Assembly (NCBI GenBank): GCA_964595645.1
Contig: CAZQQT010000003.1
Span: 1 to 64,000 of the forward strand
Direction of reading: 5' to 3'
Length of the DNA stretch: 64,000 nucleotides
Origin: an uncultured Thermococci archaeon
Lineage (GTDB): Archaea; Methanobacteriota_B; Thermococci; Methanofastidiosales; B48-G16
Shown here: positions 12,780 through 58,159 of the stretch, piece by piece
Layout: every line of letters begins with the position of its first letter
How positions within the stretch are numbered: position 1 is the stretch's first letter
The notes under the pieces: generated by a model
Database searches by the model: none
The model's input: the letters and a program-made list of their open reading frames with translations, nothing else
What the model was told of the DNA's origin: nothing
Translations under genes and position numbers: made by a program

Positions 12780-12838
12780 ACAGATTCTACATACAAAACC
12801 TTTTTAAAGATTGTCATGAAGAATGATTCGGTGAGATA

Positions 12839-13105: not shown

Positions 13106-13177
13106 CAATAATAATAACTAATGTTATAGAAAACTTTTTATAGTAGTTTCTATAGTATTGGTATAAAGAGGATTCCT

Positions 13178-14053: not shown

Positions 14054-14081
14054 TTCTTTTTTTCTTTTTTTAGGTGGGGTT

Positions 14082-33684: not shown

Positions 33685-33747
33685 GCAATCTCCTCTTTCT
33701 ATTCTCTTCATGGAGAACTTTTTAAACTTTGCCATTGTAGCGTATAT

Positions 33748-34161
33748 ATGGATGATCGTTTTTTTGTGTATATCGGGCATGAACTCGCGCATGTAAATGA
33801 TCATCTCCCGGAAAAAAAGATTTCCTTAAAAGAACTGGCAGCCCAGAAGGTGCCCCAGGTAAAAACAAAGGCCGGAGAGCACTATTTTGATCGTAAAGAC
33901 ATAAATTTCCTAAAGACCTTTGTTCCAAAGGAATTTTGGAGAAAGATATCGCTCCCATTGATAATTTTTAGAAAAAGGGAAGCGTACGCCTTTGAAGGAA
34001 ACACGTATGAATGTTTTCTCATTAAGAAATTATTGGAAGGGGAAGAGTACACCAGCGAGGCTGTGATAGAGACTGAAAGGACGTTGACGCTCTATACACC
34101 CCAGGTGACAGAATTAAAGAGAAAGTATAAAAGTCTCTTTGTGATAGGATTTAGTGTGTGA
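33748..34161 (+). CDS. hypothetical protein
   Basis: 137 aa from internal ATG 33748 (MDDRFFVYIGHELAHVNDH...). No motif recognised. Divergent from the Cys-tail gene. Confidence 0.3.
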   Translation: MDDRFFVYIGHELAHVNDHLPEKKISLKELAAQKVPQVKTKAGEHYFDRKDINFLKTFVPKEFWRKISLPLIIFRKREAYAFEGNTYECFLIKKLLEGEEYTSEAVIETERTLTLYTPQVTELKRKYKSLFVIGFSV

Positions 34162-35191: not shown

Positions 35192-36391
35192 ATGAAGGAG
35201 TATCTCCACGATCCCTACACGACACAATTTGAGGCTAACGTAGTGAGCATTGACGAGAATGCGGTGATACTGGATAGAACGTACTTTCATCCCGAAGGAG
35301 GAGGACAACCCGCAGACAGAGGATATATTGGCGGCGCTGAGGTACAGGATGTCCAGGAAAAGGAGGATACTGTTGTTCATTATCTCTCGGAGATTCCCTT
35401 TTCTGAAGGGCAGAAGGTGTTTTGTGACATCGATGAGGAGTTCCGACGATACTGTATGCGGTCCCACACTGGTGCACACATTGTTTTTGGTGCGGCCCGG
35501 ACACTTTTTGACGATGTTTCGTATGCTGGATTTGGGATAGGCGAGACGTCCACGAGGATAGATTTCGGTACGGAAACCACGGTTGACGACGATCTTCTTC
35601 TCCAGCTTGAATACCTCTCAAACAAGATCGTGCTGGAAGGAAAAGAGATCTTGCACTACTTCTCGGATGAAGTAGACGATGAACGGCTAAAAAAACTTGT
35701 GTACGCGAAGGAGATGCCTTCTGGGAGAATGAGGGTGGTAGAAATTGAAGATTGGGATGTCGCCGCGTGCAGCGGTACGCATTTCACAAATACTCGCGAA
35801 ATCGGACTTATCACGGTACTTGGAAAATCGAAGTTGCAGGAGGGTGTTACACGGATAGAGTTTACCGTGGGAGACCATGCGCTCGATAGATATATGGATG
35901 AAAAAAAGGAGCTTCATGAGGCTGCGTCTCTGCTGCATACGTCGACGAACGAGGTCTCTCAAAAGATTGCCAAACTCTTTGAGGAGTTGGATGCCAAAAA
36001 GAAAGAAAATAAGGAGCTGAAAGAGCGTCTTGTCGGTCAGGAAATCGAAAAACTGCAGCGTTCTCCCATAAATATAGGAGATTATCAGCTGCATATGGGA
36101 AAAATTTCGAGTAATGATCCAAATAACCTCGGTATTCTCTCAAAAAAAATGGTAGAAACGAAAGAAAAGTCGGTTGCTGTGTTACTATCAGAGATCCATG
36201 GAAAGATGACACTTGCAGCAAGTTGCACACCAGACATTCCGATTAATCTCAGCGATGCCTTGCAAGATGTTGTGAGAAAGCTCGGAGGGGGTGGAGGAGG
36301 CGGTCCCCGCTTTTTCCAGGCGGGTGGGATTACTGCACCATGTGAGAAGTTGCAAATGAGTGTGAAGAAGGAATTTTCGAAAAAATTATAA
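35192..36391 (+). CDS. alaX: AlaX-L-type alanyl-tRNA editing protein
   Basis: 399 aa. AlaRS second-additional/editing domain motifs HTGAHIV and CSGTHF, plus a C-terminal DHHA1-like domain with GGGGGGGP. Confidence 0.85.
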   Translation: MKEYLHDPYTTQFEANVVSIDENAVILDRTYFHPEGGGQPADRGYIGGAEVQDVQEKEDTVVHYLSEIPFSEGQKVFCDIDEEFRRYCMRSHTGAHIVFGAARTLFDDVSYAGFGIGETSTRIDFGTETTVDDDLLLQLEYLSNKIVLEGKEILHYFSDEVDDERLKKLVYAKEMPSGRMRVVEIEDWDVAACSGTHFTNTREIGLITVLGKSKLQEGVTRIEFTVGDHALDRYMDEKKELHEAASLLHTSTNEVSQKIAKLFEELDAKKKENKELKERLVGQEIEKLQRSPINIGDYQLHMGKISSNDPNNLGILSKKMVETKEKSVAVLLSEIHGKMTLAASCTPDIPINLSDALQDVVRKLGGGGGGGPRFFQAGGITAPCEKLQMSVKKEFSKKL

Positions 36392-36414: not shown

Positions 36415-37158
36415 ATGTTAGAAATAAACATCCTAGGAATCTCAGCAAGTCCACGAGAAGGAAATAGTATGTACTTGTTACAAGAAGCACTAAACGCTGC
36501 GAAAGAAGTTAATCTCTCCCATGTTGAAGCTGAAACATATTCTATCAAAGGAAAAACCTTCAAGCCATGTATACACTGTTATGCTTGTCAAGACAAACTT
36601 AATGGGGAATGCGCAATTAAAGATGATTTTCAGGAACTAAGAAACAAATGGGTAGAGGCAGATGTTATTATTTATTCAGTACCGGTTTATCATATGAGTA
36701 TTCCAGGACAATTGAAATGTTTCATTGATAGGTTAGGCAATAGTCTAAATACATACTATAATCATAAATATGAGGAAAAAGGGATAATGAGATCAATGAA
36801 AGTGATTGGTTCAATAGCACAGGGTAGGCATATTTTTTCAGGACAAGAACATACTCTCACTGATTTAATTAATCATACTATCCTTATGGGAAGTGTTCCC
36901 CTTTCTGCAGATTTATGGGAGGCATATATAGGTGTAGGAGGATGGACAGCTAACAAAAGAGACAAAAACTCTATAAAAAAACTCAACAATAAAAAAGACT
37001 TCGATGCATCAATCACCGTAAAGGCATGTAGAAATTTAGGAAAGAGATCAGTCGAACTTGCATCAATACTTATAGGGGGAGCGCTTGAATATAGAAGTTA
37101 TCTCGAAAAAGATCCTTCTTACGCTCCGTTACTTCGTAGATCAGAAAGATTCACTTAA
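36415..37158 (+). CDS. iron-sulfur flavoprotein (Isf / NADPH-dependent FMN reductase-like)
   Basis: 247 aa. Flavodoxin-like start (INILGISASPREGNS) and compact cysteine cluster CIHCYACQDKLNGEC. Confidence 0.7.
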   Translation: MLEINILGISASPREGNSMYLLQEALNAAKEVNLSHVEAETYSIKGKTFKPCIHCYACQDKLNGECAIKDDFQELRNKWVEADVIIYSVPVYHMSIPGQLKCFIDRLGNSLNTYYNHKYEEKGIMRSMKVIGSIAQGRHIFSGQEHTLTDLINHTILMGSVPLSADLWEAYIGVGGWTANKRDKNSIKKLNNKKDFDASITVKACRNLGKRSVELASILIGGALEYRSYLEKDPSYAPLLRRSERFT

Positions 37159-37701
37159 TTGCAAAGTAATTGTAAAAAACTCTGTAGTGAGAGAAACTTT
37201 ACAGTTATGGTTAAGATCTTCAAAAAAGTTAACAAAGTATTTGGAAAGTATCTCTGAATAATGGTAACCCATATAATGATAGAATGTTAATGTTACATCA
37301 CCACTAATGGGATACTCAACAGTAATTCTTTCAAACCAATTGTTGGCTTTATAATTAAATGCGAGATGTTTCACTATTTTTTCCAAGGGTAGGTCTTCTA
37401 AGGATTCTTTTGTTATTATTTCTAGAGCTCTTCTGCAGCTTTTTTTATCCGAAAAATTTTCTATTTTTCCTTCTAATAAGTAATTAAAAGACTTTTTACT
37501 AAGAAATACTGCGTTATGATCTTTCATCCGCAACCAGTAAGAGTCTTCATCGGAGACTTCTTTAAGATTAATTTTTTCATCAAGTGCATCCAATGCTATT
37601 TCTATAACTTTCTTCTGTGTTTTAAAGTATTTTGCGAAAAATTTTAATTTATCATAATACTCTATGCTTAGGGTGGTATGTATTTGTTTAGTTTCTACCA
37701 T
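37141..37701 (-). CDS. hypothetical protein (AT-rich gene)
   Basis: 186 aa, no motif. Convergent with the Isf gene; the 3' ends overlap. Confidence 0.4.
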   Translation of the reverse strand: MVETKQIHTTLSIEYYDKLKFFAKYFKTQKKVIEIALDALDEKINLKEVSDEDSYWLRMKDHNAVFLSKKSFNYLLEGKIENFSDKKSCRRALEIITKESLEDLPLEKIVKHLAFNYKANNWFERITVEYPISGDVTLTFYHYMGYHYSEILSKYFVNFFEDLNHNCKVSLTTEFFTITLQLSESF

Positions 37702-37836
37702 ATTTGTCCACTAATCCATGTACATAAATATCTCTTTTGTGTACACAAGTTCTTATATACATGTACACGCATATAAACTTTTGGTAGACAAAGAATAAAT
37801 CTTTGTCTATAACAAAAAATTGAAGGAGGAAAAAAA

Positions 37837-37995
37837 ATGGCTTGGGGATTTCCAACGACGACTTTTTGGATGCTTATACTGACAGTGTTCGTAGGATTGC
37901 TACCGCTTTTGATATATATCTATGACATTGTGGCATATAGTAAAGTTGCTCCCGCAAAGCGTGCTAAGGAAGTAAGATCCAAGGAGGAGGAGTAA
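37837..37995 (+). CDS. small membrane protein, likely accessory subunit of the downstream symporter (not in the ORF track because under 60 aa)
   Basis: ATG 37837 follows SD aaggagga. Encodes MAWGFPTTTFWMLILTVFVGLLPLLIYIYDIVAYSKVAPAKRAKEVRSKEEE (52 aa, one TM). TAA stop lies 1 nt before the ATG of the SSS transporter, and its KEEE codons (aaggaggaggag) form that gene's SD. Confidence 0.5.
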   Translation: MAWGFPTTTFWMLILTVFVGLLPLLIYIYDIVAYSKVAPAKRAKEVRSKEEE

Positions 37996-37996
37996 A

Positions 37997-39454
37997 ATGG
38001 ACATAAAACTGATATTGTTTGGGGTCTACTGCATTGGAATATTGTTAGTGGGCTATCTAGGATACCTAAAAACAAAAACGTTGGGCGATTTCTATCTTGC
38101 AGGGCGGAAAATAAACAAATGGATCGGTGCCGGTACCTTTGCAGCTACTTTTGTAAGTGCAATTACCTTCGTATCGTGGATTGGCTTCGGCTGGCAATTT
38201 GGTACTGCATTAGTGCCAGTGTATATCTTTGGATGCTTGGTCGGGTTTTTCCTTTATGCTATCGTTGCTCCAAAGATAAATATCATTGCACATAGAAATG
38301 AGACGTATACACCATCGGATTATTATGAGGGACGGTTTGATAGCAGTTTTCTTAAGCTATGGGCCACTACGTTTACTATAGTAGGCTTTTGTGTCTATCT
38401 CGTAATACAGTTGATAGGAACTGGTGTACTCTTTGAAGTAATTGTAGGAATACCATTTGCTCAAGCTCTGATCATTCTTGGAATTGTGTATACTATTTAT
38501 ACACTGCTTGGCGGGATGAAATCTGTTGCGTGGACAGATACAATACAATTTTCAGTATTTGTACTCGCAACAATAATTGCTTTCATCTACGTACTGCCAG
38601 AAGTAGGTGGATTTAGTGGACTGACGACAACCATAAAATCGATTAATCCAAGCTTGTTGACACTGACATCTGGAGGCACGTTTAGCCCCTTGTGGATTTT
38701 TGGAATAGCATTTGCAGTTGCAGTAGTTATACCTCTCCACTACGGTTATTTCTCGCGGGCAATGGCAGCCAAAAGTCCTCGTGAAGCTCGTGCAATGGTC
38801 GGTATCGGTTCGACGGGATTATTGATATTTTACCTTGCTATAGCCGTATTGGCCCTTGCCGCAAGAGCCTATATTCCTGATACAAGCGCTATTGCAACAG
38901 ATGAAGCATTCCCTACAATGGTATTGGAACACTTTCCGACGTTACTAGCTGCGTTTATCCTCGCATCGTTAGGTGCTGCAGTGATGTCTACCACAGATTC
39001 GATTCTGTTACAGGTCGGTGCAAATGTTTCGAACGATATTTACGCCAAATTTATAAATCCCGATGCATCAGACAAGAAGACACTTATGGTAGCCCGAGTA
39101 CTCGTTATTGTATTTGCCATAATAACGATTCTTCTAGGGCTTACAAAGCCAGCTGTGCTATGGGAGATCTATAACTTCTTTATCGTATTCCTCGTAGCAC
39201 CGTACTTTGCAATCTTTTTCTTGGGACTGTACTGGAAAAAAGCTACAAAGGCTGGAGCGATTGTCGGTGCCGTATCCGGTGGAGTAATTGGATGTGCAAT
39301 CAATGGATGGCAAGTACTTGGAGGAGTACCAGAAGTTCTTTCGTACCATCCAACACTGTATGCCGTTCCAATCTCAGTGGTACTGATGATAATCGTCTCT
39401 TATATGACGAAGCCACTACCAAAAGAAGTTGTCGAAAAATGGTACAAAATTTAA
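37997..39454 (+). CDS. sodium:solute symporter (SSS) family transporter
   Basis: 485 aa, ~13 TM. N-terminal FYLAGRKINKWIGAGTFAATFVSAITFVS and a GG..S.AWTDTIQ segment, as in PutP/PanF-type SSS transporters. Confidence 0.85.
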   Translation: MDIKLILFGVYCIGILLVGYLGYLKTKTLGDFYLAGRKINKWIGAGTFAATFVSAITFVSWIGFGWQFGTALVPVYIFGCLVGFFLYAIVAPKINIIAHRNETYTPSDYYEGRFDSSFLKLWATTFTIVGFCVYLVIQLIGTGVLFEVIVGIPFAQALIILGIVYTIYTLLGGMKSVAWTDTIQFSVFVLATIIAFIYVLPEVGGFSGLTTTIKSINPSLLTLTSGGTFSPLWIFGIAFAVAVVIPLHYGYFSRAMAAKSPREARAMVGIGSTGLLIFYLAIAVLALAARAYIPDTSAIATDEAFPTMVLEHFPTLLAAFILASLGAAVMSTTDSILLQVGANVSNDIYAKFINPDASDKKTLMVARVLVIVFAIITILLGLTKPAVLWEIYNFFIVFLVAPYFAIFFLGLYWKKATKAGAIVGAVSGGVIGCAINGWQVLGGVPEVLSYHPTLYAVPISVVLMIIVSYMTKPLPKEVVEKWYKI

Positions 39455-39510
39455 AAAATCTCCTTTTTTTTTATTTGTCATTTTTTTTGGTCCACAAAGT
39501 CGTGATATTA

Positions 39511-40181
39511 TGGGTATAAAGGATAAAATAAAGTGTGGTGTTACAGGGTGCCCAAACGAGGTGATAGGTGAGTGCGATTATTGTGGCATACCTTTGTGCG
39601 AAGATCATGCTCAAAAATTAGAGACGAATAAGAGTACGGAGCTTTATTGCGCCGGATGTTTTCTTTATGTTTCAGTTTCTGGATTAAAAGAGAGAGATCT
39701 AGATCGTAGACTCATCCCAAATGTGTTATTCGTAAATAGTAGGAAATGCACAGGATGCAGAACCTGTGAACTTGTATGTTCGTTTGAGCATTTTGGAGTG
39801 TTTAGTTATGACAAGTCTGCTGTAGAATTAAAAAAGGATGAAGAATACGGCAAAACTGAAATTGTGCTATGCAGACACTGTGATGATCCAAAATGCGTTG
39901 AAATTTGTCCTACTGATGCGTTAAAAAAAGACAAAAATACTGGACTTGTTTCATTGAATAGAGAAAAATGTATTCAGTGTATGCGTTGCGTAGAAGAATG
40001 TCCTTATGATGCCATCTTTAGTTCCAAAGACAAAAAAATAATTAAATGTGATTTGTGCGGAGGAGATCCGATGTGTGCAAAATATTGTCCTGCAGAGGCT
40101 ATAGAATGGGTGAAAAAACATAAAATTGGAGAAAGAAAGAAACTTACTTATTTTATTTATCCAGAAGAGGAGGAAAGATGA
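39511..40181 (+). CDS. 4x[4Fe-4S] ferredoxin-type protein (electron partner of AOR)
   Basis: Start MGIKDKI at 39511. Four CxxCxxCxxxCP clusters (CTGCRTCELVC, CRHCDDPKCVEICP, CIQCMRCVEECP, CDLCGGDPMCAKYCP). Its PEEEER codons hold the SD of the AOR gene. Confidence 0.8.
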
Positions 40182-40182
40182 T

Positions 40183-42063
40183 ATGTCACTTAATAAAAAA
40201 ATCATAAAAGTGGATCTCACAAAGAAAAAAATAAACAAAGAGAGACTACCAAAGAAATTTTTCGAAAATTATCTTGGTGGAAGAGGGATGGGTGCAAAAA
40301 TTCTTTTCGAGGGAGTCAGTGAGACTACAGAACCTCTTTCTCCAGAAAATATAGTGATTGTGTCTACCGGGACGCTGGCAGGTACATTTGCTCCAGCATC
40401 AGCTAGACTCACGATCACATCTAAATCTCCCGAAACGGGTATCTACTGCAAAAGTAGCGTAGGTGGTCATTTTTCTCCAGAATTAAAATTTGCAGGGTAT
40501 GATGGCATTGTGATTTCTGGAGCTTCTGAAAATCCTGTTTATCTTAATATAAGAGATGATCTGGTTGAGATAAAAGATGCAACACATCTGTGGGGCAAGG
40601 ATGTACGCAAAACGAATGCTATACTGAAAAGAGAACTTGAAGATAAAAAAATCAATGTGCTCTCAATTGGTCCTGCAGGCGAAAATCTTGTGAAATATTC
40701 CTCGATCGTAAGTAATATATATAGACAAGCTGCAAGAGGGGGAATGGGCACTATTTGGGGATTTAAAAAACTTAAAGCTATAGCAGTAAGGGGTACAACA
40801 CCTTTGAAAGTTGCAAATCCCTCTCAATTCAAAAAAATAGCGTTGAAAGCAAGGAGGTCAGTGAAAAATGATCAGGATAGATTCTATCGCTATTTTTATT
40901 TTGGAGCAAACAGGGGACTTGTAGGGGCAAACGAGGTGGGATTTAACCCAACTAAAAATTTCCAGACTACTTACATGAAAAATGCTTATCCTACAGGAGG
41001 GGAATATATCCGCGAAAAATATATAGTACGAGAGAATGGATGTGGGTCGTGCGTTCTCTGTTGCGGACAGTCTTATGAAATTGATGATGGCCCCTTTGTC
41101 GGCACACATTCTGAAGGTCCAGAATGGGAAGCAGGAAGTTCATTCGGCGCGAGGATTTTCAATAACGATCCAGAAGTAGTCCTAAAAGCTAATGAGATAT
41201 GCAATATTAATGGTCTTGACCTCTCTTCAGCAATGAGTGTGATAGCGTTTGCAATGGAATGCTACGAGAACGAATTGTTGACTAAAAAGGATACAGAGGG
41301 ATTTTCCTTAGAATGGGGTAATACGGACACTGTACTAGAGCTCTTAAGAAAAATAGCGGAGAGAGAAGGTTTTGGAGATTTTCTCGCAGATTCAATTAAA
41401 GAAGTTTCAGGAAAGATAGGCAAAGAATCAGAAAAATATGCAATCCAAATCAAAGGACTGGGGCTTACAAGTGTTGATTTAAGATCAACTGTCCCATACG
41501 CTCTTGCCTTTGCGGTCAATCCTCGAGGAGGAGATCACTTACACACAGAAATAATTTGCCAGTTTGGTGGAACACCAGAGCATGAAGAAATCGCAAATAG
41601 AATAAGTGAAAGCTCCAAAGGAGCAGATCGTTTCTCCTTTAAAGGAAAGGCAAAAATGGTGAAGTATCACGAAGAAATTTGTTGCGCTTCAGATTGTTTA
41701 GGCATCTGTTTCATGCACACTCTTTCTTCACATAGAGTAAGTCCTGAACTTCTCTCAGGCATGTTTGAGAGTGCTACAGGTATTCCAATGAGCACAGGAA
41801 AGCTTCATAGAGCATGTGAAAGGATAGTGAATATAGAGAGGATGTTCAATGTGCGAGAAGGTTTGGGGAAGAAGGACGATACATTACCAAGGCGATTTTT
41901 CGATGAATCAGTGCCAAATGGGCCAGCAGAAGGATACAGAATACCTAAAAATAAATTTGATGAACTGCTTCAACAATATTACAGGATACATAGGTGGAAT
42001 TCTAGTGGAGTCCCCAAAGAAGAGACGTTAAAGAAACTCGAACTCGAAGAGTTAGTAAAGTAA
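40183..42063 (+). CDS. aor: tungsten-type aldehyde:ferredoxin oxidoreductase (AOR family)
   Basis: ~626 aa from ATG 40183. AOR N-terminal domain (FFENYLGGRGMGAKILFEGV), cluster-ligand region CGSCVLCCGQ, C-terminal pterin-binding domains. Confidence 0.9.
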   Translation: MSLNKKIIKVDLTKKKINKERLPKKFFENYLGGRGMGAKILFEGVSETTEPLSPENIVIVSTGTLAGTFAPASARLTITSKSPETGIYCKSSVGGHFSPELKFAGYDGIVISGASENPVYLNIRDDLVEIKDATHLWGKDVRKTNAILKRELEDKKINVLSIGPAGENLVKYSSIVSNIYRQAARGGMGTIWGFKKLKAIAVRGTTPLKVANPSQFKKIALKARRSVKNDQDRFYRYFYFGANRGLVGANEVGFNPTKNFQTTYMKNAYPTGGEYIREKYIVRENGCGSCVLCCGQSYEIDDGPFVGTHSEGPEWEAGSSFGARIFNNDPEVVLKANEICNINGLDLSSAMSVIAFAMECYENELLTKKDTEGFSLEWGNTDTVLELLRKIAEREGFGDFLADSIKEVSGKIGKESEKYAIQIKGLGLTSVDLRSTVPYALAFAVNPRGGDHLHTEIICQFGGTPEHEEIANRISESSKGADRFSFKGKAKMVKYHEEICCASDCLGICFMHTLSSHRVSPELLSGMFESATGIPMSTGKLHRACERIVNIERMFNVREGLGKKDDTLPRRFFDESVPNGPAEGYRIPKNKFDELLQQYYRIHRWNSSGVPKEETLKKLELEELVK

Positions 42064-42076
42064 AAAGGTGATCAAT

Positions 42077-42787
42077 ATGAGAATAAAAATTGTATTGCCG
42101 GTACCACATAATATGTGGAATGATCAAATACTTGCGAGCTGCAAGGAGGCTGCAAGTCAAAAGGCTGAAATTGAATTAGTGAACACTCAACATGGGGCAG
42201 AAACGTTAGAAGGATTTTATCACGCTAGTTTTGCTGAAAGAGACACGATTAATGAGATAATACAGGCTGAAAAAGACGGGTACGATGTTGTAGTGGTATG
42301 GTGCACTGCTAATGTAGGGGTAGAAGCAGCAAGGGAAGTAGTAAAAATACCTGTTGTTGGTATTATGGAGGCTGCACACTTATTGGCGATGTTACTCGGA
42401 CGAAGATTCTCAGAACTAGTTTCAGTAAAAAATGTAGTGGTGAGGCATGAAAGGAACGCAGAAATTCTCGGTTCCAATTCGAAACTTGCTTCTGTAAGAG
42501 AAATTGCGCTGCCAGTTAAAAAATTCCATGAAAATTTGGATTTAACTTATAAAAAGATGTTTGAAGCGGGAAAAAAAGCGATCGATGAGGACAATGCAGA
42601 TGTACTTGTACTTGGCTGTGGCGCAATGCTCGGAATAACTGATAAATTGAGTAAGGAGCTCGGCGTTCCAGTTATTGAACCTGGCAGTGCAGGCGTACAA
42701 ATGGCCGAAATGCTTGTGCATTTACATAAAGCTCACAGTAAAAAAGCGTATCCACTCCCCCTTGATGATATAAAGGTGATTAAATGA
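42077..42787 (+). CDS. Asp/Glu/hydantoin racemase superfamily protein
   Basis: ~236 aa from ATG 42077. Two-domain pattern (VVVWCTANVG ... IPVVG and VLVLGCGAM ... GVPVIEP), as in hydantoin racemase / EutA / maleate isomerase relatives. Confidence 0.55.
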   Translation: MRIKIVLPVPHNMWNDQILASCKEAASQKAEIELVNTQHGAETLEGFYHASFAERDTINEIIQAEKDGYDVVVVWCTANVGVEAAREVVKIPVVGIMEAAHLLAMLLGRRFSELVSVKNVVVRHERNAEILGSNSKLASVREIALPVKKFHENLDLTYKKMFEAGKKAIDEDNADVLVLGCGAMLGITDKLSKELGVPVIEPGSAGVQMAEMLVHLHKAHSKKAYPLPLDDIKVIK

Positions 42788-43779
42788 CAATACTAAAATA
42801 TGCAAAACTTGGAAGTTATGTAGTAAAAAAGTTGGCGAATATAGCTCCTAATGAAACTGTATTACTTTTAGGAGATACAGGAAGTAACAAATCAATGATG
42901 GATGCCATAATGTCTGCATCTATAGGGTTAGGTGTGGAAGTACAAATGCTCATGTATCCTGAGAGAAACACCACCAATGTCGAACCGTCAAGAGCAATTG
43001 CCGAAGCAATGAAAAATTCGGATGTCATAATTGATCTCTCAGTAAACTATTTTATTCATACCCAAGCGTATGATGATGCTCGCACAGCGGGTGCTCGGGC
43101 ACTTGTTACGATACCGCCAGGAATAGAAGAGTATATAAATGCAGGAGTTGTGGGGATAAATTATGAAAAAATGGTTAAAGAAGGCCAGATAATTGCCGAT
43201 CTATTTGAAAAGTCTAAAAAATGTAAAGTAATATCAGAAGAAGGAACTCATTTAGAAATGAACCTTGGTGAGAGACCTGCAGTGCTGAGAGATGGAATGG
43301 TGGTGAGCAGTGGTGAGATAGATTACTTCCCCGGAGCCCAAGTTTCACTGGCCCCTCTAGAGGATTCAATGAATGGTAAAATTGTCGCGAACGGGTCGAT
43401 ATATCCTCCGATCGGAAAACTTAGCGGAAACGTAGAAATTCAAGTAGAGGAGGGTACTATAGTTGAAATAAGTGGTTCTACAGATGCACAGGAATGGAAA
43501 AAATGGTTAAAGAGTCTAGAAGATAGAGAAATGTACAATATTGCACATTTTAGCATTGGATTCAACCCTAATGCAAATTTGAGAGGATATATCATCGAAG
43601 ATGAGAGAATTAGAGGCTCTGTGACTTGCGGATTTGGTTCTCAGATGATTGATTTCAAAGGAAAGTACGGAAAGGCAAAATCACATACAGATGTTGTTTC
43701 ACTCTTTAACACTGTTTTTTTGGATGATAAAAAGATTGTTGAAAATGGCAACATTCTTGTAGATGATAAAGATGAATAA
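42784..43779 (+). CDS. M29 aminopeptidase-like (AmpS / 2,5-dihydroxypyridine dioxygenase-like) protein
   Basis: 331 aa. N-terminal YVVKKLANIAPNETVLLLGD and C-terminal HFSIGFNPNA segments resemble peptidase family M29. Assigned by eye only. Confidence 0.45.
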   Translation: MTILKYAKLGSYVVKKLANIAPNETVLLLGDTGSNKSMMDAIMSASIGLGVEVQMLMYPERNTTNVEPSRAIAEAMKNSDVIIDLSVNYFIHTQAYDDARTAGARALVTIPPGIEEYINAGVVGINYEKMVKEGQIIADLFEKSKKCKVISEEGTHLEMNLGERPAVLRDGMVVSSGEIDYFPGAQVSLAPLEDSMNGKIVANGSIYPPIGKLSGNVEIQVEEGTIVEISGSTDAQEWKKWLKSLEDREMYNIAHFSIGFNPNANLRGYIIEDERIRGSVTCGFGSQMIDFKGKYGKAKSHTDVVSLFNTVFLDDKKIVENGNILVDDKDE

Positions 43780-44965
43780 GATACGATTGATCGAGAAGGA
43801 GGTAAATAGAAATAAAAATAGAATTATTGGATTAATACAAAAATTAGTAAAAATTCCAAGCTTTTCAGGAGACAAAAAAGGACTATCAGAAATAGCCCAG
43901 ATACTTTCTGACGAGATGAATAAGATTGGTCTTTCTGTGGAATTTATTGAAGCAGAAAAAGGATTACCTAATGTCGTGGGAAGGTTCAATAGCACTGATA
44001 GTAGCAGTCCATGGATTTTATTCAATGGCCATACAGATGTTGTGCCTGTTCAGAACGAAGAGAAATGGATCGTAGATCCATTCAAAGCCGAGATAAAGGA
44101 TGGAAAGATGTACGGTAGAGGCGCATGTGATATGAAGGGAGGGCTTGGAGCGATGGTAGCTGCTTCAAGAATAGTTTTGGATCTTTTCCCTGAATACAAT
44201 GGTAATTTTGTACTTACCGGCACGGTAGATGAAGAAATTGGAGGGGCCATAGGTATGCAATATATCCTGAAGAAAGGAGTGAGGGCAAATATGGGCATTG
44301 TGTGCGAACCGTCAGACCTCATGATTACCAATGTGTGTAAGGGACTTGTGTGGACGAAACTTAAGACTATTGGAAAGAGTGCCCATGGTAGCATGCCTGA
44401 AAATGGTATCAACGCTGTATATAAGATGTCGAAAATTCTTCATGTGTTAGAAGGATATACTTTCGATCGCCCACCTCATGAGATGCTGGGAAGTCCTACT
44501 ATAAATGTTGGAACGGTAAGGGGAGGATCAAAGCCCAACTTAATCCCTGATTTATGCGAAGTAGAGCTCGATATAAGATACTTACCTGATCAGACATATA
44601 AAGAAGTCATGAATGATTTAGAACGTATAATCAACGAACTGAAGGAGGAAGATCCAGAAATAAAGACTGAAATGGATATGATCCGTTATCGTTCCTCTGT
44701 AGAAGTACAAAAACATGAAAAAATAATACAAACTATCGTAGATGCAACAAAAAAGGTTAAAGACGCCCATCCTGGCTTCAAGGGCATGCCTTCACCAGGA
44801 GACAGTGAACATTTAGTTAAAGCTGGCATCCCTAGTGTAATGTTTGGTCCAGGCTCTGAAGATCTATGTCATGTAGACAATGAGTGGATTGCGGTTAATG
44901 AAATTTTGACCGCAGTAAAAATTTATGCAGCAATTATGTTGGAAGGTGAGAAAAATGGAAAATAA
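43763..44965 (+). CDS. M20-family metallopeptidase (ArgE/DapE-type deacylase)
   Basis: 400 aa. NGHTDVVPV, GRGACDMKGG, VDEEIGG and C-terminal SEHL/HVDNE motifs. The start overlaps the upstream gene. Confidence 0.8.
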   Translation: MIKMNKIRLIEKEVNRNKNRIIGLIQKLVKIPSFSGDKKGLSEIAQILSDEMNKIGLSVEFIEAEKGLPNVVGRFNSTDSSSPWILFNGHTDVVPVQNEEKWIVDPFKAEIKDGKMYGRGACDMKGGLGAMVAASRIVLDLFPEYNGNFVLTGTVDEEIGGAIGMQYILKKGVRANMGIVCEPSDLMITNVCKGLVWTKLKTIGKSAHGSMPENGINAVYKMSKILHVLEGYTFDRPPHEMLGSPTINVGTVRGGSKPNLIPDLCEVELDIRYLPDQTYKEVMNDLERIINELKEEDPEIKTEMDMIRYRSSVEVQKHEKIIQTIVDATKKVKDAHPGFKGMPSPGDSEHLVKAGIPSVMFGPGSEDLCHVDNEWIAVNEILTAVKIYAAIMLEGEKNGK

Positions 44966-45956
44966 TATAGATGTTGGTCAAGAAATACTCTATTTGACTC
45001 TAGAAGATATAGAAAGAATACAACTAAATGAAGAAAAAGTGTTTGAGATAGTGGAAGGTGCTTTGGCTGAACACGGAAGAAAAAACTGTGAAATGCCTGC
45101 AAAAATAGGATTACATCCATTGAAGGACACTCTTATGCACGCTATGCCTGCTTTCATTCCTAAATTTAAGGCGTGCGGAATAAAATGGGCGTCATGTTTT
45201 CCAGAGAACCATAAATATAATCTTGCCCAAACATCAGGATTACTTGTTCTCAATGATCAAAACACGGGCTGGCCTATCGCTGTGATGGACGCTATCTGGA
45301 TTACTGCTAAAAGAACTGCTGCTGTTACAAGAGTTGCATGCAAATACCTGGCAAGAGAAGATTCTGAGCAGCTTGGCATTATAGGTACTGGTGTTCAAGG
45401 AAACGAACATATAAAAGTGCTACCCAAAGTATTACCAAATCTTAGGACAATAAAAGCATACGATATGCGTGCCGATGCGAGAGAAGAGTTTGTGAAAAAA
45501 TACAATAACGAACTAGATTGCAATGTTGAAATAGCATCTAATTATAAAGAAGCTGTTGCAGATTCTGATGTAATAGTTTCTGCTACTGCCATTCTTCAGA
45601 AACCTGATCCGCAAATTAAAGATAAATGGATCAAGGAGAGAGGCGTGTTTATTGCCCCTGTTGATTTTGATTCGTTATGGGAGTTCGCTACCATGTCACG
45701 AATGGACAAATTCCTTGTAGACTCGATTGATGAAATGAATTATTTTGAAAGCATTGGCTATTTACCTCATGGACTTCCTCCCTCTCTCCATGGAGAAATA
45801 GGAGAGGTGGTTGCAGGATTAAAACCAGGTCGAGAAACAGATGAAGAGAACATTATGGACATGAACATAGGTATGGCAGTAGAAGACATGCCTGTGGCAA
45901 AAGAACTTTATAGACAAGCATTAAAAAATGGAATAGGCAAAAAACTTCCTCTTTAG
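44955..45956 (+). CDS. ornithine cyclodeaminase / mu-crystallin family protein
   Basis: Start MENNIDVGQEIL at 44955 (SD ggaaggtgag). OCD pattern with Rossmann GIIGTGVQG and NTGWPIAVMDA. Confidence 0.8.
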   Translation: MENNIDVGQEILYLTLEDIERIQLNEEKVFEIVEGALAEHGRKNCEMPAKIGLHPLKDTLMHAMPAFIPKFKACGIKWASCFPENHKYNLAQTSGLLVLNDQNTGWPIAVMDAIWITAKRTAAVTRVACKYLAREDSEQLGIIGTGVQGNEHIKVLPKVLPNLRTIKAYDMRADAREEFVKKYNNELDCNVEIASNYKEAVADSDVIVSATAILQKPDPQIKDKWIKERGVFIAPVDFDSLWEFATMSRMDKFLVDSIDEMNYFESIGYLPHGLPPSLHGEIGEVVAGLKPGRETDEENIMDMNIGMAVEDMPVAKELYRQALKNGIGKKLPL

Positions 45957-46232
45957 ATTTTCTTATAAAGAGCTAAAAGTTTAAATGATAAAGAATAGCA
46001 TTGTGCAGATAAAATGTATTTTAAACGAGAGATGATAAAGGTATTTGTATGCAAAACTAACGAAACGTAAGAAGACACTGTGATAATCGCCTGCCTACGT
46101 GAAACATTCTATGAGAGATATCCTATATATATCCAAGACTAAAAATTGTAGCCATACGCATCATTGATCCTATCATAGCTACTGTTATAATGATGCAGAT
46201 TCATCGTACATACAATATAGAGGGGATTTATT

Positions 46233-47150
46233 ATGTTAAAACAAGTTATGGAGATACATAAATTGTTGGATAATATTCAGGTTAGTGGAGAAAAAGTAGC
46301 GACATTTCTTAAACACAGAGGAGCAGACGAAATAGAAATAAAAAAAGTAGAAGGGAAAGAGAAATCGACAGATTTTATCAAAATCCAGCTCTACGGGAAG
46401 AATAAAGATGCCCCAACACTCGGAATTATTGGACGACTCGGCGGTATCGGTGCACAACCACATAGAAAGGGGTTTGTATCAGATGCAGATGGGGCTATTA
46501 CCGCACTCGCCTGTGCGCTCAAATTAGCTGAGGTGAAGCAGGACGGAAACTTACTAAATGGCGATGTGGTTATTGCAACACATATCTGCCCAAATGCGCC
46601 GATTATTCCCCACGAACCTGTGCCATTTATGGGATCACCGGTGACAATGGAGGAAATGAACAGACACGAGGTCAATGAGCAAATGGATGCAATACTTTCC
46701 ATTGATACAACAAAGGGAAACAGGCTGCTCAATTACCGTGGATTTGCGATTACACCCACTGTGAAGGAAGGATATATCCTCAGAGTGAGCGAGGATCTTC
46801 TGAACATCATGGAATGGACCACAGGGAAACAACCACGGGTTTTTCCGATCACCACCCAAGACATCACACCCTACGGGAATGAAGTATTCCATGTAAACAG
46901 TATCCTTCAGCCTTCCACTGCAACAACAGCACCTGTCGTAGGTGTGGCGATTACTACCGAGACAGCGGTACCGGGATGTGCAACAGGAGCAACTCATGAG
47001 ACAGATATAGAAGAGGCAGCTCGGTACTGTATTGAGGTGGCGAAAGCTTTTACTGAAAGAACGTGCAGGTTCTATGACAAAAAAGAGTTTGCCAGGCTTG
47101 TGAGCATTTATGGGGAGATGCGTGCTCTCCAGACCCTCAGTGGCAAATAG
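46233..47150 (+). CDS. hypothetical protein, possibly DUF1177 family
   Basis: 305 aa, no catalytic motif recognised (GIIGRLGGIGAQPHRKGFVSDADGAITALACALKLAE). Size and context are compatible with DUF1177 (about 300 aa, found in archaea and bacteria), but this is unverified. Confidence 0.4.
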   Translation: MLKQVMEIHKLLDNIQVSGEKVATFLKHRGADEIEIKKVEGKEKSTDFIKIQLYGKNKDAPTLGIIGRLGGIGAQPHRKGFVSDADGAITALACALKLAEVKQDGNLLNGDVVIATHICPNAPIIPHEPVPFMGSPVTMEEMNRHEVNEQMDAILSIDTTKGNRLLNYRGFAITPTVKEGYILRVSEDLLNIMEWTTGKQPRVFPITTQDITPYGNEVFHVNSILQPSTATTAPVVGVAITTETAVPGCATGATHETDIEEAARYCIEVAKAFTERTCRFYDKKEFARLVSIYGEMRALQTLSGK

Positions 47151-47192
47151 ACCTAAAGCCTTTTATATGTAGAGTTTCCAGAGAGAAACGAT

Positions 47193-47912
47193 ATGCGTCT
47201 TATATTTTTCGATCTCGATAGGGTCCTGACACCCGCGTCTCACGTGCTCCTGATAGCCGAAAGAATCGGACAAAAGGAGAAGTTTGAAAAACTTTTTAAA
47301 GGAAGTGTGGAAGGCAAAACAGGATTAGAATGGATAGTAAAGCAGGGTATCACGTTTCTTGAGGGGCATGACCCTTCACTTTTTGAAGAAATCGCAAAAA
47401 ACATGAAGATTATAGAAAATGGGGTAGAAGTAGTAACGACCTTAAAGGAAAATGGGTATCACCCTATTATTATTACCAATGGATTTTACCGCGTTGCCCA
47501 AATTTTTGGTGAACGAATAGGGGTTAAGGAGGTGTATGGTAATAGAGCAGAGAAAAGAGATGGCGTCTTCACAGGGAAGATTTACTCCGATCTCCTCACT
47601 CTAAAATCGAAGGGTGACGTGGTGAGAAGGATCATCAAGAAGAAAAATCCAAGTATCTCCGTTTCCGTTGGCGATGATGAGAACGATTGGTTTATGTTCG
47701 AAGAAACAGACTTTTCTATTCTTTTTAATCCAACACCTTCGATTCTCCAGAAAGTACGATCCCTCAAAGAGAAGAAGGGAATGAGAGAGCTCACCAAATT
47801 CATCAACCTCATTGTTGCCAGGGATGATCTCAGTCTTATTCTTCCCTTTCTTGTCCCTGAGCCCGATCTTTTCCCAAAGTCAGTTACTGCAGAGCGAAAA
47901 ATTATCAGATGA
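47193..47912 (+). CDS. HAD-superfamily hydrolase (phosphoserine phosphatase-like)
   Basis: 239 aa. Motif I FFDLDRVLT, motif III K (GKIYSD), motif IV GDDENDWFMF. Confidence 0.7.
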   Translation: MRLIFFDLDRVLTPASHVLLIAERIGQKEKFEKLFKGSVEGKTGLEWIVKQGITFLEGHDPSLFEEIAKNMKIIENGVEVVTTLKENGYHPIIITNGFYRVAQIFGERIGVKEVYGNRAEKRDGVFTGKIYSDLLTLKSKGDVVRRIIKKKNPSISVSVGDDENDWFMFEETDFSILFNPTPSILQKVRSLKEKKGMRELTKFINLIVARDDLSLILPFLVPEPDLFPKSVTAERKIIR

Positions 47913-47966
47913 CCCATCTGTATTTAATGGAAACCTTTTTTTATCTCATCCCCTATTATCTATCCT

Positions 47967-48422
47967 ATGACGGATGATCTTGATATAAAGATACTCAGAG
48001 AACTGCAGGAAAACGCAAGGGCACCCTTTCGAGATCTCGCAAAAAAGTTTGGAGTCTCCGCACAGACAATCAGCGATAGAGTAAACAAAATGATGAAAAA
48101 AGGTGTTATTAAACGATTTACTGTGGACTGCGATCTACCCCTGCTCGGCTATGGGTTGACCTTCTTTGTCCACGTGAACACGAAGATTTCAAAACTAAAG
48201 AAAGTAGCGAATAAGATGAAGAACTACAATGAGCTGTACTCAGTTCATATCACGACGGGAGATCATGATATTGTTGGGATAGGTGTTGCCCGAGACACCA
48301 ACCATCTTTATGAAATCATAGAGAATAAAATATCTCAGATAAATGGCGCAGAAAAGACAATTACGTACGTATGTCTCAAAGAAATAAAAGATGTAGAAAA
48401 AGTAAGCGCGGTCACGAAGTAA
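47967..48422 (+). CDS. Lrp/AsnC-family transcriptional regulator
   Basis: 151 aa. N-terminal HTH (DIKILRELQENARAPFRDLAKKFGVSAQTISDRVNKM) and C-terminal RAM domain. Confidence 0.85.
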   Translation: MTDDLDIKILRELQENARAPFRDLAKKFGVSAQTISDRVNKMMKKGVIKRFTVDCDLPLLGYGLTFFVHVNTKISKLKKVANKMKNYNELYSVHITTGDHDIVGIGVARDTNHLYEIIENKISQINGAEKTITYVCLKEIKDVEKVSAVTK

Positions 48423-49401
48423 CGATTTTTCGTATATTTTCCTGCGTTTCTTTGGGCGGTGTTCGGGTGTTTACCATGTAGAGATCTACAAGCTTGAAGT
48501 AATTTTCGAAAAATTCTTTTCTAATTCGTATCTTTCTCTCGTTTCGTATAAGCTGGTGAGGGTTGCAAAAATCATTTTTCACAACGTAGTCAAGCGCTTC
48601 TTTCCACCCCATCTCATAATAAAGTTCTTCTTCATCGTCTCTCTTTAAAAAGAGTACCTTTTCCATAGTGGTTTCACTTTTTGTTCCTGTTTTTCCGATT
48701 ACTCGTGAAATATCCACCACAGCTCTATCTTCAGTGTCTAACTCCACATCTTTGATCAACCGCTGAAACTCTGGGTAAATATCAGCGATATCCTTGCGGA
48801 TGTAGCAATTCTTCTCGGAAGCCCGTGCCACCACCGAGTTCCCCAATATTCTCGTGTAGTACCAGTCGTCTGCCACTAATTTTGTATTATTGAGGAGGAG
48901 GAGTCCATACGAGTGTGTTGTTTTTCCCATACCTGAGGGAGCTATCATTGAGATCCCCTTGCCCTTATAATCTATTGCAGCTCCATGGACAGAGTGTCGG
49001 GAGTGAATGGAGTGATATTCTTCGAGAAAATCCCCTGCCACAGCAAGAGCGAGACTTTTCACATGACCATAGTATCGTGAGTTAAAGATAAAGCATGTTT
49101 TTGATATCGGTTCGTAAAAGACCTTCAATGGCCCTTCACTGCTCAATGTGAATACCCTCCCGTGAGGGCGGATGTACTCAAGCATATGTTTGAAATTGTC
49201 CTCCCACATGTCCTTGAAGGTATGGTTATCTGTTAAGAGTTTAATGCACATTCCGGCGAGATCTGCTTTTCTTTCGTAGAGAATCTGATCTTTGAACTCT
49301 TCGATAAGTTGATCTTTCCTGTCTGGATATATTTCTTCTACTTCGTACATGCATCTCGACAATGGAGGGGATATAAAAATGTTATGGTGGTAGTAGAACA
49401 A
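48412..49401 (-). CDS. HPr kinase/phosphorylase C-terminal-domain-like P-loop protein
   Basis: 329 aa. IAPSGMGKTTHSYGLLLLNNTKLVADDWYY resembles the HprK P-loop plus the conserved LVADD segment. Confidence 0.5.
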   Translation of the reverse strand: MFYYHHNIFISPPLSRCMYEVEEIYPDRKDQLIEEFKDQILYERKADLAGMCIKLLTDNHTFKDMWEDNFKHMLEYIRPHGRVFTLSSEGPLKVFYEPISKTCFIFNSRYYGHVKSLALAVAGDFLEEYHSIHSRHSVHGAAIDYKGKGISMIAPSGMGKTTHSYGLLLLNNTKLVADDWYYTRILGNSVVARASEKNCYIRKDIADIYPEFQRLIKDVELDTEDRAVVDISRVIGKTGTKSETTMEKVLFLKRDDEEELYYEMGWKEALDYVVKNDFCNPHQLIRNERKIRIRKEFFENYFKLVDLYMVNTRTPPKETQENIRKIVTS

Positions 49402-52010: not shown

Positions 52011-52076
52011 GTCCTCGACGATGGAGCCACACCCCTACGAAAGCTTTTTAAATTGATTTCTGTTAGAGGATACCAT

Positions 52077-52151
52077 GCTCCGGTAGTGTAGACCGGTCAA
52101 TCATTCCGGCCTTTCGAGCCGGTGACTCGGGTTCAAATCCCGGCCGGAGCA
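52077..52151 (+). tRNA. tRNA-Glu (anticodon UUC)
   Basis: GCTCCGGTAGTGTAGACCGGTCAATCATTCCGGCCTTTCGAGCCGGTGACTCGGGTTCAAATCCCGGCCGGAGCA. 7-bp acceptor stem, anticodon stem CCGGC/GCCGG with loop CTTTCGA (anticodon TTC), T-loop TTCAAAT, discriminator A, no CCA. Confidence 0.85.
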
Positions 52152-52470
52152 TATTTACCCTGCATTTAATGCTCTCTGCTCTTTTTTTCCTTTTTTCCAG
52201 AAAGTATTTCCTATCTGTATGTTACTATGAACATAGTCCTTGATAAAGCTTTCGATCGTGGTCATTCTTGAGTTTCTATACTTCGTGATATGTATTATCT
52301 CACTCACAGAGATCGTGTCATATTCGGGCTCTCAGCGGTTCATATGCGACCTGTAGGATCCGAGAGAAGGGATTTATGACACTCTCCAACTGTAAGGTAC
52401 CAGAAGATCAATATCGCATTATCTTGTTTCGAAATACTTGGAGATCTGAAACTAATTTTAGATCGTATTT

Positions 52471-54408: not shown

Positions 54409-54610
54409 ACCTTGTCAACTAAATTTTCTATCATGTTCCTACTATAGAGATATAGTACTTTTGGTTTTTTAATCTTTTGGTCTTGCAAATTCAGTCGTTT
54501 ATTTTTTTATTTGACCTGCCTAATTTTCCTAAGCCCAATTGAGGGAGCTTTTTCAGTTCCTCTCACTCTTCTGACTCTCATCTCCAGATCCTTTATCTAA
54601 GAAAGAGACT

Positions 54611-56056: not shown

Positions 56057-56241
56057 GGATTTACTTTCTCATAGTACTCTTCAAAAAACTCGTCTGAGAT
56101 GTTATCCTCTTTATGGGTATTGAGTAATGTTTTTTTTAGATCCGCCTGTAACTCCCTGTACTCTTCCTCACTCATCTTATCTTTGTTGTCAGTAAGATAT
56201 GTGTATAACTCTCGTATGCCTTCTTCCTCTTTTTTACTCAT
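56008..56241 (-). CDS. stand-alone N-terminal module ORF (family member 2, head), overlapping the body gene in another frame
   Basis: 77 aa, MSKKEEEGIRELYTYLTDNKDKMSEEEYRELQADLKKTLL... First 40 residues are identical to the N-terminus of 1643..2500. Ends out of frame relative to the downstream body ORF. Confidence 0.55.
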   Translation of the reverse strand: MSKKEEEGIRELYTYLTDNKDKMSEEEYRELQADLKKTLLNTHKEDNISDEFFEEYYEKVNPWRERWEKRQKGLKKK

Positions 56242-56283
56242 CCTGATCGTTATACTATTCTTTTCATTCTATAAATAGTTTTT
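56078..56283 (-). repeat. IR-B copy 2 (inverted copy of 1601..1807)
   Basis: See IR-B copy 1. Identity includes ~42 nt of upstream sequence. Confidence 0.8.
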
Positions 56284-56412
56284 TATATTTTCGAAAAAAG
56301 TTTATAATCTCGGGAGAGATATGGGCGATATGCATCGAGGTTTTAAAGAGACACAAAAAATCTAAAAAAAAAGAAAATATTTATATTTTTTATTTATTTT
56401 ATTCAGGGAAAA

Positions 56413-57489: not shown

Positions 57490-57676
57490 ACATCTTGAAT
57501 GTCTCTTTTTTTATAAATAACTTTTCCCTCTTTCTGAAAGAAACGTTTATAAACTTCAACATCTCTGGAATATTGGAGGGTCTGGAGTGGTACTGTTTTC
57601 AAAGACCTCCCACACCCCTCTCCAGATCCTCCATATCCTCTTTTCAGGGTCCTATTCACTTTTGTTTTTCAACTGA

Positions 57677-58132: not shown

Positions 58133-58159
58133 CTAATCTTGGTACTCACTTAACAGCAT

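Follow-up and report, generated by a model that had tools for sequence, protein, structure and literature searches.

To our knowledge, the physiological substrates of most tungsten enzymes of the aldehyde:ferredoxin oxidoreductase (AOR) family are poorly defined. In AorABC of Aromatoleum aromaticum (PDB entry 8c0z) and in WOR5 the AOR is combined with a polyferredoxin subunit and, in AorABC, with AorC, an FAD/NAD-binding flavin subunit. In the Hyu, allantoin and ATC-type systems a racemase is followed by a ring-opening hydrolase and an M20 amidohydrolase, together with a dedicated transporter. Here we describe a gene cluster with features of both kinds of system, at positions 36415-48422 of a 64-kb window (the whole stretch of DNA analysed, 64,000 nucleotides of contig CAZQQT010000003.1), whose core genes for Nre, ABCE1, NOG1, NFACT and AlaX belong to an archaeal host. 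An earlier reading of the letters alone, hereafter the original prediction, had taken the entire cluster for one acquired, Lrp-bracketed catabolic pathway. With moderate confidence we favour a narrower reading, in which 36.4-46.2 kb is an acquired island of 9.8 kb carrying a recurrent anaerobic catabolic module, and the DUF1177, HAD and Lrp genes behind it are native. The module is so far undescribed and recurrent in anaerobes, other sediment microbes among them; no paper was found in the literature that describes it or that links AOR with NicX or with hydantoin racemase. A canonical AOR that shares a compact, conserved operon with a transporter and two amidohydrolases would offer a tractable route to a dedicated AOR substrate, and to a new anaerobic catabolic pathway.

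Although the island resembles Hyu, allantoin and ATC-type systems in its sequence of racemase, hydrolase, M20 enzyme and transporter, it has no amidohydrolase-superfamily or HyuA/B-type hydantoinase, and a protein of the NicX fold stands in that position. Its M20 enzyme is of the ArgE/DapE/YgeY type and not of the AmaB/AllC carbamoylase type, its transporter is a sodium:solute symporter (SSS) and not an NCS1 carrier, and it has a dedicated AOR, which no Hyu system does. With AorABC and WOR5 it shares the combination of AOR, AorA-like polyferredoxin and flavoprotein, and seven of the 13 lineages that carry the module also have a ThiS/MoaD-like gene, as in aor operons. Unlike AorABC, the module has no AorC homolog, the place of which is taken by an Fe-S flavoprotein of the FMN_red family; the N-terminus of the polyferredoxin is extended by a Cys-rich segment, and the AOR sits within a hydrolase operon. 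The reductive urate pathway (SsnA, HyuA, YgeW, YgeY and YgeX) is similar in the anaerobic breakdown of an N-heterocycle by successive ring hydrolases and in its M20 enzyme, the ureidohydrolase YgeY, enzymes of this type being able to hydrolyse ureido groups (PMC12507026). The M20 enzyme of the island, however, scores below the YgeY cutoff, and homologs of XdhD, SsnA, HyuA, YgeW and YgeX are absent from the island.

Organisation and limits of the island

Gene families were called by Pfam and NCBIfam profile searches and anchored by PDB matches; loci from other sources are given L numbers. The features of the cluster and of the host gene at its left side are as follows.

35192-36391, plus strand: AlaX-type alanyl-tRNA editing protein (Pfam, NCBIfam), host gene at the left insertion site
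36415-37158, plus strand: Fe-S flavoprotein of the FMN_red family (Pfam PF03358, E=2e-20), first island gene
37141-37701, minus strand: hyp186, conserved hypothetical protein, divergent from the transporter operon (56% identity to the L087 homolog at the same position)
37785-37809, divergent promoter region: perfect 10-bp inverted repeat, TAGACAAAGA-N5-TCTTTGTCTA (repeat search)
37837-37995, plus strand: 52-aa small membrane protein (pattern shared with open reading frames upstream of the L087 and L091 transporters)
37997-39454, plus strand: SSS sodium:solute symporter (PF00474, E=8e-57)
39510-40181, plus strand: AorA-like 4Fe-4S polyferredoxin (Pfam Fer4 families; PDB 8c0z_C, E=1e-28)
40183-42063, plus strand: AOR (AFOR_N, E=2e-74; AFOR_C, E=4e-112)
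42068-42787, plus strand: Asp/Glu/hydantoin racemase, accessory (PF01177, E=1e-33)
42784-43779, plus strand: NicX-family (M29-fold) metalloenzyme, core member (NicX family PF26233, fold level)
43763-44965, plus strand: M20 metallo-amidohydrolase of the ArgE/DapE/YgeY type, core member (TIGR01910, 279 bits)
44955-45956, plus strand: OCD/mu-crystallin family protein, accessory, last island gene (PF02423, E=4e-55)
45957-46232: right junction or spacer, at the composition switch, matching neither L086 nor L087
46233-47150, plus strand: DUF1177 protein, native neighbour (PF06675, 444.8 bits, E=1e-133)
47193-47912, plus strand: HAD-IB phosphoserine-phosphatase-like hydrolase, native neighbour (TIGR01488 above cutoff)
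47967-48422, plus strand: Lrp/AsnC regulator, native neighbour (HTH_AsnC-type and AsnC_trans_reg domains)

These calls bear out most of the families named in the original prediction, as well as the mostly plus-strand run (11 of the 12 large genes) and its tight, operon-like character, as the genes from SSS through OCD overlap or lie no more than 4 nt apart. The product described as M29-like proved to be a NicX-family protein instead, and the one described as DUF1177-like is a true member of that family. The hyp186 gene and the 52-aa membrane reading frame had been missed, and the flavoprotein gene, which lies inside the region, had not been named.

For 36415-48422 as a whole the third-position GC content (GC3) is 0.331, significantly below the 0.479 of the 25 genes that lie upstream at 1-36.4 kb (Mann-Whitney p=2e-5). 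The nine genes of 36415-45956 have GC3 values of 0.25-0.37 and codon-usage distances of 0.18-0.29, the core median being about 0.13 (the flavoprotein gene has a GC3 of 0.25 and hyp186 a GC content of 0.29), whereas the DUF1177, HAD and Lrp genes are host-like, with a GC3 of 0.43-0.44 and distances of 0.14-0.19. The closest relative of the window's DUF1177 protein, 83% identical, is found at L086, a locus of a Euryarchaeota metagenome-assembled genome (MAG), where DUF1177 follows AlaX after 15 bp and the island is lacking. Positions 1052-2189 of L086 correspond to 35192-36335 of the window at 78% DNA identity (AlaX), and 2339-3214 to 46311-47198 at 84% (DUF1177); the two genes of the window are separated by about 9.8 kb of DNA with low GC3. 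The lower GC content and the horizontal acquisition that had been predicted for the cluster are therefore supported for 36415-45956, by composition and by the break in synteny with L086, and not for DUF1177-HAD-Lrp, so that the acquired conserved unit stops at 45956 and not at 48422.

At a second locus, L087, the gene order follows that of the window from AlaX to OCD, after which comes a serine dehydratase gene and not DUF1177. Its island and its AlaX gene have one shared composition (GC3 0.25-0.33). The island proteins of the window and L087 are 70-82% identical and the AlaX proteins 61%, while the window AlaX is 76% identical to that of L086, which has no island. The shared, native composition of L087 and an island identity exceeding that of AlaX indicate import from a lower-GC relative after the hosts had diverged. 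L087, itself a lower-GC relative, appears to resemble the donor, which was likely a related lower-GC archaeon and not a distant source. At the left end, the identity of the window AlaX gene to L086 drops in the final ~100 nt, where its C-terminus is like that of L087, a weak hint that the junction lies within the 3' end of AlaX. At the right end, homology to L087 stops at 45958 and homology to L086 restarts at about 46231, and no Rfam match and no repeats were found in the spacer at 45957-46232. The locus would represent a metabolic island that has moved between uncultured archaea of sediments, although it lacks the usual mobility genes.

Recurrence of the module in other lineages

Gene neighbourhoods and a metagenome scan, dereplicated at 95%, yielded 13 lineages of the NicX-like gene, including the window; this subtype is rare, with about 24 clusters among 5.8 billion proteins. 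M20 and AOR genes each accompany it in 11 of the 13 lineages, the polyferredoxin in 10, the FMN_red flavoprotein in seven, the racemase in five, SSS in four and OCD in three, while DUF1177, HAD and Lrp are present only in the window (one of 13). By this tally the most conserved core is formed by the NicX-like protein, M20, AOR and the AorA-like polyferredoxin, often with the Fe-S flavoprotein, and the accessory genes, namely the transporter, the hydantoin/allantoin-type racemase and the OCD dehydrogenase, vary by lineage. The AOR is with its polyferredoxin part of this core and not a generic addition. Two of the misses are contig truncations and one, L105, is a true exception, in which the NicX-like gene lies right behind an Opp-type ABC transporter.

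The M20 gene is located immediately downstream of the NicX-like gene in 11 of the 13 lineages, and the copies of the module show at least seven gene orders; the persistence of linkage through such shuffling indicates that it is maintained by selection. Conservation of the block in other genomes, which had been put forward as a check, was thus found for the island part. The adjoining transporters are of the SSS, MFS, Opp or LIV type, always amino-acid or peptide carriers, and some lineages have extra genes for ATC hydrolase, PTE or MttB, the occasional ATC hydrolase and PTE being additional ring hydrolases. Plasmids of cultured organisms contain only relatives of at most 32% identity, in unrelated hydrolase and transporter contexts.

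On the metagenome contig L114 (1-15139) the core module lies inside a long co-directional run that also comprises an Opp-type ABC transporter, a D-2-hydroxyacid dehydrogenase, an ATC (thiazoline) hydrolase, a corrinoid protein and an MttB-family methyltransferase, with a second AOR set on the opposite strand.

Redox enzymes

The AOR falls into the canonical clade, with 382 bits (E=7e-113) to 1aor, 285 to FOR, 235 to WOR5 and 228 (2e-66) to BamB, and contains the CxxCxxxC cluster motif. It is 59-79% identical to the AORs linked with NicX-like genes elsewhere, and its metal site is putatively of the tungsten type. The polyferredoxin, the start of which was picked by homology to homologs of 222-224 aa, has AorA as its best PDB match, with 9mqx_E and the WOR5 small subunit next. 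It is extended at the N-terminus by about 70 aa, encoded at 39510-39720, that are rich in Cys and His (CGVTGCPNEVIGECDYCGIPLCEDH...CAGC); in the PDB alignments, AorA and the WOR5 small subunit match the query no earlier than about residue 73.

The flavoprotein contains a compact CxxCxxCx7C motif at residue 52, which suggests an Fe-S flavoprotein that relays electrons. Its homologs at L087, L091 and L025 (76%, 55% and 48% identity) each adjoin genes for a ferredoxin and an AOR, and the protein is probably the electron-transfer partner of the ferredoxin and AOR.

L025 belongs to a deltaproteobacterial MAG, in which an FMN_red flavoprotein, an AOR, a polyferredoxin and a Flavin_Reduct gene (11034-15396) adjoin DUF1177, an Amidohydro_3 gene, an aminotransferase and a TRAP transporter. 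This arrangement suggests that the flavoprotein, AOR and ferredoxin form a reusable unit in their own right.

Hydrolases, racemase, dehydrogenase and transporter

The NicX-like protein shows significant sequence and structural similarity to NicX (PF26233) at the level of the fold, with an identity of only 22%, and matches no NCBIfam model at all. It is not a true M29 aminopeptidase, as it scores 15.4 bits (E=0.0087) on PF02073, the cutoff of which is 27. The Fe(II) ligands of NicX, which we take to be His265, Ser302, His318 and Asp320, are matched by H255, H301 and D303 for the two histidines and the aspartate, while the position of Ser302 is occupied by an invariant Asp290; an invariant EDER motif is also present. 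A role as 2,5-dihydroxypyridine dioxygenase is not supported, in view of the Ser302 to Asp290 replacement, the lack of other nic genes and the occurrence of the protein in an anaerobe with AOR. The aerobic nic cluster differs further in that homologs of NicAB, NicC, NicD and NicF are lacking here, the racemase is of the hydantoin type and not a maleate isomerase, and the module hosts are anaerobes with an O2-sensitive AOR. We propose that the NicX-like protein acts as a ring- or amide-opening hydrolase, which suggests that the NicX fold has non-dioxygenase members.

The racemase, by its sequence, is in the hydantoin/allantoin subfamily of PF01177; the solved hydantoin and allantoin racemases 3qvj and 5lfd match with E=5e-27 and E=1e-23, and the catalytic residues Cys79 (VVWCTAN) and Cys184 (VLGCGAM) are retained. 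The solved relatives act on cyclic amides or ureides, and another relative, OpaE, is an epimerase for a residue that forms part of a cyclic, peptide-derived ring (PMC12661438). A maleate isomerase of the NicE type was considered and rejected, the PDB matches being only to hydantoin/allantoin racemases and OpaE.

The M20 protein exceeds the TIGR01910 cutoff (279 bits against 217.6) and reaches 234 bits with the YgeY model, the cutoff of which is 321; no equivalog model (DapE, ArgE or YgeY) reaches its cutoff. The DapE structure 7uoi matches with E=8e-39, and the dinuclear metal site is complete (H90xD, D123, D156-E-E and H370), which is consistent with a putative deacylase or decarbamoylase. 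The OCD protein scores 187 bits on PF02423, contains the Rossmann motif GTGVQG and is 82% identical to its L087 homolog. It matches archaeal AlaDH (1omo), Pyr2C reductase (6t3e) and SbnB (4m54) about equally, with E values of ~1e-41 to 1e-43, and is a putative NAD(P) dehydrogenase or imine reductase.

The symporter exceeds the TIGR00813 cutoff and stays below those of PanF (180 bits) and PutP (175 bits); it is 77% identical to the L087 and 69% to the L091 homolog. This putative, distantly PanF/PutP-like transporter may take up the substrate of the module. The 52-aa reading frame stops 2 nt before the symporter start, and its WGF..FW.L..LPLLIY pattern recurs in reading frames of 43 and 40 aa upstream of the SSF genes of L087 and L091; it probably encodes an accessory subunit of the transporter. 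For hyp186, no match was found in local Pfam or in the PDB, and its designation as a recognisable regulator was dropped for want of such support; its L087 homolog is precomputed as PF27313 (AF_0136_C), and hyp186 may at best be put forward as a weak candidate for an island-borne regulator. The inverted repeat at 37785-37809 is a possible candidate operator; the corresponding site of L087 contains an inverted repeat of another sequence. Across 35-49.5 kb no Rfam match was obtained at E<=1, and hence no riboswitch or RNA clue to the ligand.

The DUF1177, HAD and Lrp genes

The DUF1177 protein matches profile positions 2-271 of 272 of a very conserved family with more than 8000 matches, for which a clan-MH zinc exopeptidase/amidohydrolase fold is predicted; DUF1177 thereby gains a prediction at the level of the fold. 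In the literature DUF1177 is essentially unmentioned, with one unrelated mention found. Neighbourhoods in 80 genomes (partners within 10 kb) contain AroM at 53 loci, NicX-like genes at about 33, DUF917 at 32, hydantoin-racemase-like genes at 25-30, OPT transporters at 23 and M20 genes at 15-24. The cluster of DUF1177, AroM, DUF917, hydantoin racemase, NicX-like and OPT genes thus has DUF1177, racemase-like, NicX-like and M20 families in common with the window, and its families have been noted near non-CDPS cyclodipeptide oxidases (bioRxiv 10.1101/2023.09.25.559410). It differs in that the NicX-like protein and racemase of the window belong to a different, rare subtype, linked to AOR and not to DUF1177.

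These neighbourhoods bear on the view that the whole of 36415-48422 is a single catabolic regulon controlled by Lrp, with DUF1177 as a further amidohydrolase and HAD as a helper. We consider this unlikely, even though the genes are co-directional, DUF1177 starts only 277 bp past OCD and is a predicted metallo-exopeptidase, its relatives cluster with racemase-like, NicX-like and M20 genes in the 80 genomes, and at L025 it adjoins the flavoprotein-AOR-ferredoxin triad. The composition switches exactly ahead of DUF1177, L086 has AlaX-DUF1177 without the island, and L087 has the island without DUF1177 after it. An AOR with a ferredoxin stands by DUF1177 in only two of the 80 genomes (L025 and L029), about the level of chance in AOR-rich genomes, and these AORs are 42-44% identical to that of the window and hence of a different subtype; a general linkage of AOR with DUF1177 was accordingly rejected. 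SSS, OCD, HAD and Lrp genes never occur near DUF1177 in the 80 genomes, homologs of HAD and Lrp are never found near DUF1177 or NicX-like genes elsewhere, and the usual DUF1177 partners AroM, DUF917, OPT and hyp275 are absent from the whole 64-kb window. No Lrp homolog lies near the module in the 12 other lineages, so that the bracketing of the pathway by Lrp, as it had been proposed, is not a conserved feature. The HAD protein reaches 90 bits with SerB, below cutoff. On composition and synteny, DUF1177, HAD and Lrp are native genes merely adjoining the insertion.

DUF1177 clusters of bacteria and archaea (L001, 773-12975; L041; L062) often contain several adjacent paralogous racemase-like, NicX-like and DUF917 genes with an OPT transporter, and this multi-hydrolase system is widespread and uncharacterised. 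Beyond the Lrp gene, a 329-aa protein with a weak match to the HPr-kinase C-terminal (P-loop) domain is encoded on the minus strand at 48412-49401; its gene converges on the Lrp gene and overlaps the Lrp stop codon by 11 nt.

Possible substrate and pathway

The substrate of the module is probably a small amide or cyclic amide derived from an amino acid; the SSS, MFS, Opp and LIV transporters and the extra ring hydrolases are in keeping with such an amide or with a small heterocycle of like origin. The functional class named in the original prediction, in which an N-acylated or cyclic amino-acid derivative is taken up and degraded, is still the most reasonable one; the compound could be a cyclic amide or ureide, an amino acid bearing an N-acyl or N-carbamoyl group, or a modified short peptide. 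Following import of the amide by the symporter and its small subunit, the racemase could equilibrate the stereocentre adjoining the carbonyl, and the NicX-like enzyme could cleave or open the first amide bond. M20 would then strip the remaining acyl or carbamoyl group, and the OCD protein could interconvert the amine and the imine or oxo form. The AOR would oxidise an aldehyde intermediate to the acid, passing electrons to the polyferredoxin and on to the Fe-S flavoprotein or ferredoxin.

Several observations weigh against this reading. NicX itself is an O2-dependent dioxygenase, and we infer the hydrolase role of its relative only from gene context and the Ser-to-Asp ligand change. No enzyme that would obviously generate the aldehyde, such as a decarboxylase or a conserved transaminase, is apparent in the module, and none of its enzymes reaches an equivalog cutoff. 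Of the features of genomic islands, the segment has atypical composition and codon usage and is absent from the orthologous locus L086, but no integrase or transposase genes, tRNA genes as a target or flanking direct repeats were found at its ends; the direction of transfer is read from composition and one flanking gene. DUF1177 may also have a functional tie to the island, as its families elsewhere cluster with racemase, NicX-like and M20 genes.

The module could also run an internal redox loop, with an unsaturated or aromatic N-heterocycle as substrate. The flavoprotein would reduce the ring with reduced polyferredoxin, the NicX-fold protein would hydrolyse the reduced ring, in the manner of an enamidase, to give an aldehyde, a formyl, carbamoyl or acyl group would be taken off by M20, and the AOR would oxidise the aldehyde and re-reduce the ferredoxin. 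In nicotinate fermentation by Eubacterium barkeri, a precedent for such a route, 6-hydroxynicotinate is reduced by an Fe-S flavoprotein that depends on ferredoxin, and hydrolysis of the ring gives 2-formylglutarate. The loop would explain why the ferredoxin, the AOR and usually the flavoprotein travel with two hydrolases, and NicX, the only characterised relative, cleaves a pyridine ring. It is nevertheless improbable, being entirely inferential: the flavoprotein is missing from five of the 13 lineages, several of them on short contigs and some in complete-looking arrangements, the adjoining transporters look like amino-acid or peptide carriers, and the presence of the racemase points to a substrate with an sp3 stereocentre. 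A looser version, in which the module is an O2-independent route for N-heterocycles or cyclic amides, the NicX-fold protein a hydrolase and a ring-derived aldehyde the dedicated AOR substrate, with electrons perhaps recycled to ring activation, is itself a rather doubtful conjecture.

In ectoine degradation, DoeA is the ring hydrolase, DoeB the N-acetyl-diaminobutyrate deacetylase, and DoeC oxidises aspartate-semialdehyde. An anaerobic, non-orthologous pathway for ectoine, hydroxyectoine or a similar cyclic compatible solute would assign these roles to the NicX-like protein, M20 and AOR, and those of EutABC to the racemase, the OCD protein and a dehydratase. The step order is analogous, with a core of ring hydrolase, deacylase and aldehyde oxidation to which the racemase and OCD are optional, as in doe versus eut; the OCD and racemase superfamilies are shared, N-acetyl-diamino acids are substrates of M20 enzymes of the ArgE type, a gene of the serine-dehydratase type adjoins OCD in L087, the SSS transporter is of an osmolyte-like type, and an Lrp/AsnC gene, the type of regulator that goes with the ectoine genes, is near in the window. 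Orthology, however, is lacking at every step examined by NCBIfam models: the OCD protein obtains 94 bits with EutC (TIGR02992), the cutoff being 471.65, and the EutA model gives no match. The hydrolase, deacylase and aldehyde-oxidising enzymes are of unrelated folds, no homologs of the DoeA (M24) or DoeB families and no conserved aminotransferase to provide the semialdehyde were found, and the Opp and MFS transporters and the ATC-hydrolase, PTE and MttB genes of some lineages would be unexpected. The link to Eut and Doe suggested in the original prediction is therefore not upheld, and such a pathway seems quite improbable. Although AOR genes are numerous in such anaerobes and L114 has a second AOR set nearby, it is hardly credible that the AOR, ferredoxin and flavoprotein set and the hydrolases are chance neighbours with no common pathway, since they are linked in 10 of the 11 lineages with enough flanking sequence despite the shuffling of gene order, at protein identities down to about 59% and in the more distant L110, and are translationally coupled in the window.

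Host and other parts of the window

The ABCE1 protein of the host is at most 79% identical to any sequence, with 74-77% to MAGs of unclassified Methanomicrobia or Euryarchaeota archaea and about 60% to Theionarchaea and Methanofastidiosa; the host therefore belongs to an uncultured lineage and is presumably anaerobic. Two amidohydrolase-superfamily genes, Amidohydro_1 (7327-8568) and Amidohydro_3 (16719-18203), are located on the minus strand in the part with host composition, and the host thus has other candidates for cyclic-amide hydrolysis outside the island. A radical-SAM/SPASM/PqqD-domain maturase gene on the minus strand at 30845-32170 overlaps a 568-aa reading frame at 32098-33804 that has no Pfam or NCBIfam match, and 30845-33804 may be a peptide-modification locus. 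A second block of even lower GC3 (0.27-0.35) is located at 52076-61495 and begins right after tRNA-Glu(ttc) at 52076-52152. It comprises large reading frames with no family match at 52471-54408 and 54611-56056, an Eco57I/TaqI_C-type gene at 58160-59938 and an MmeI-like restriction-modification gene at 59981-61495, and looks like a separate defence or mobile island.

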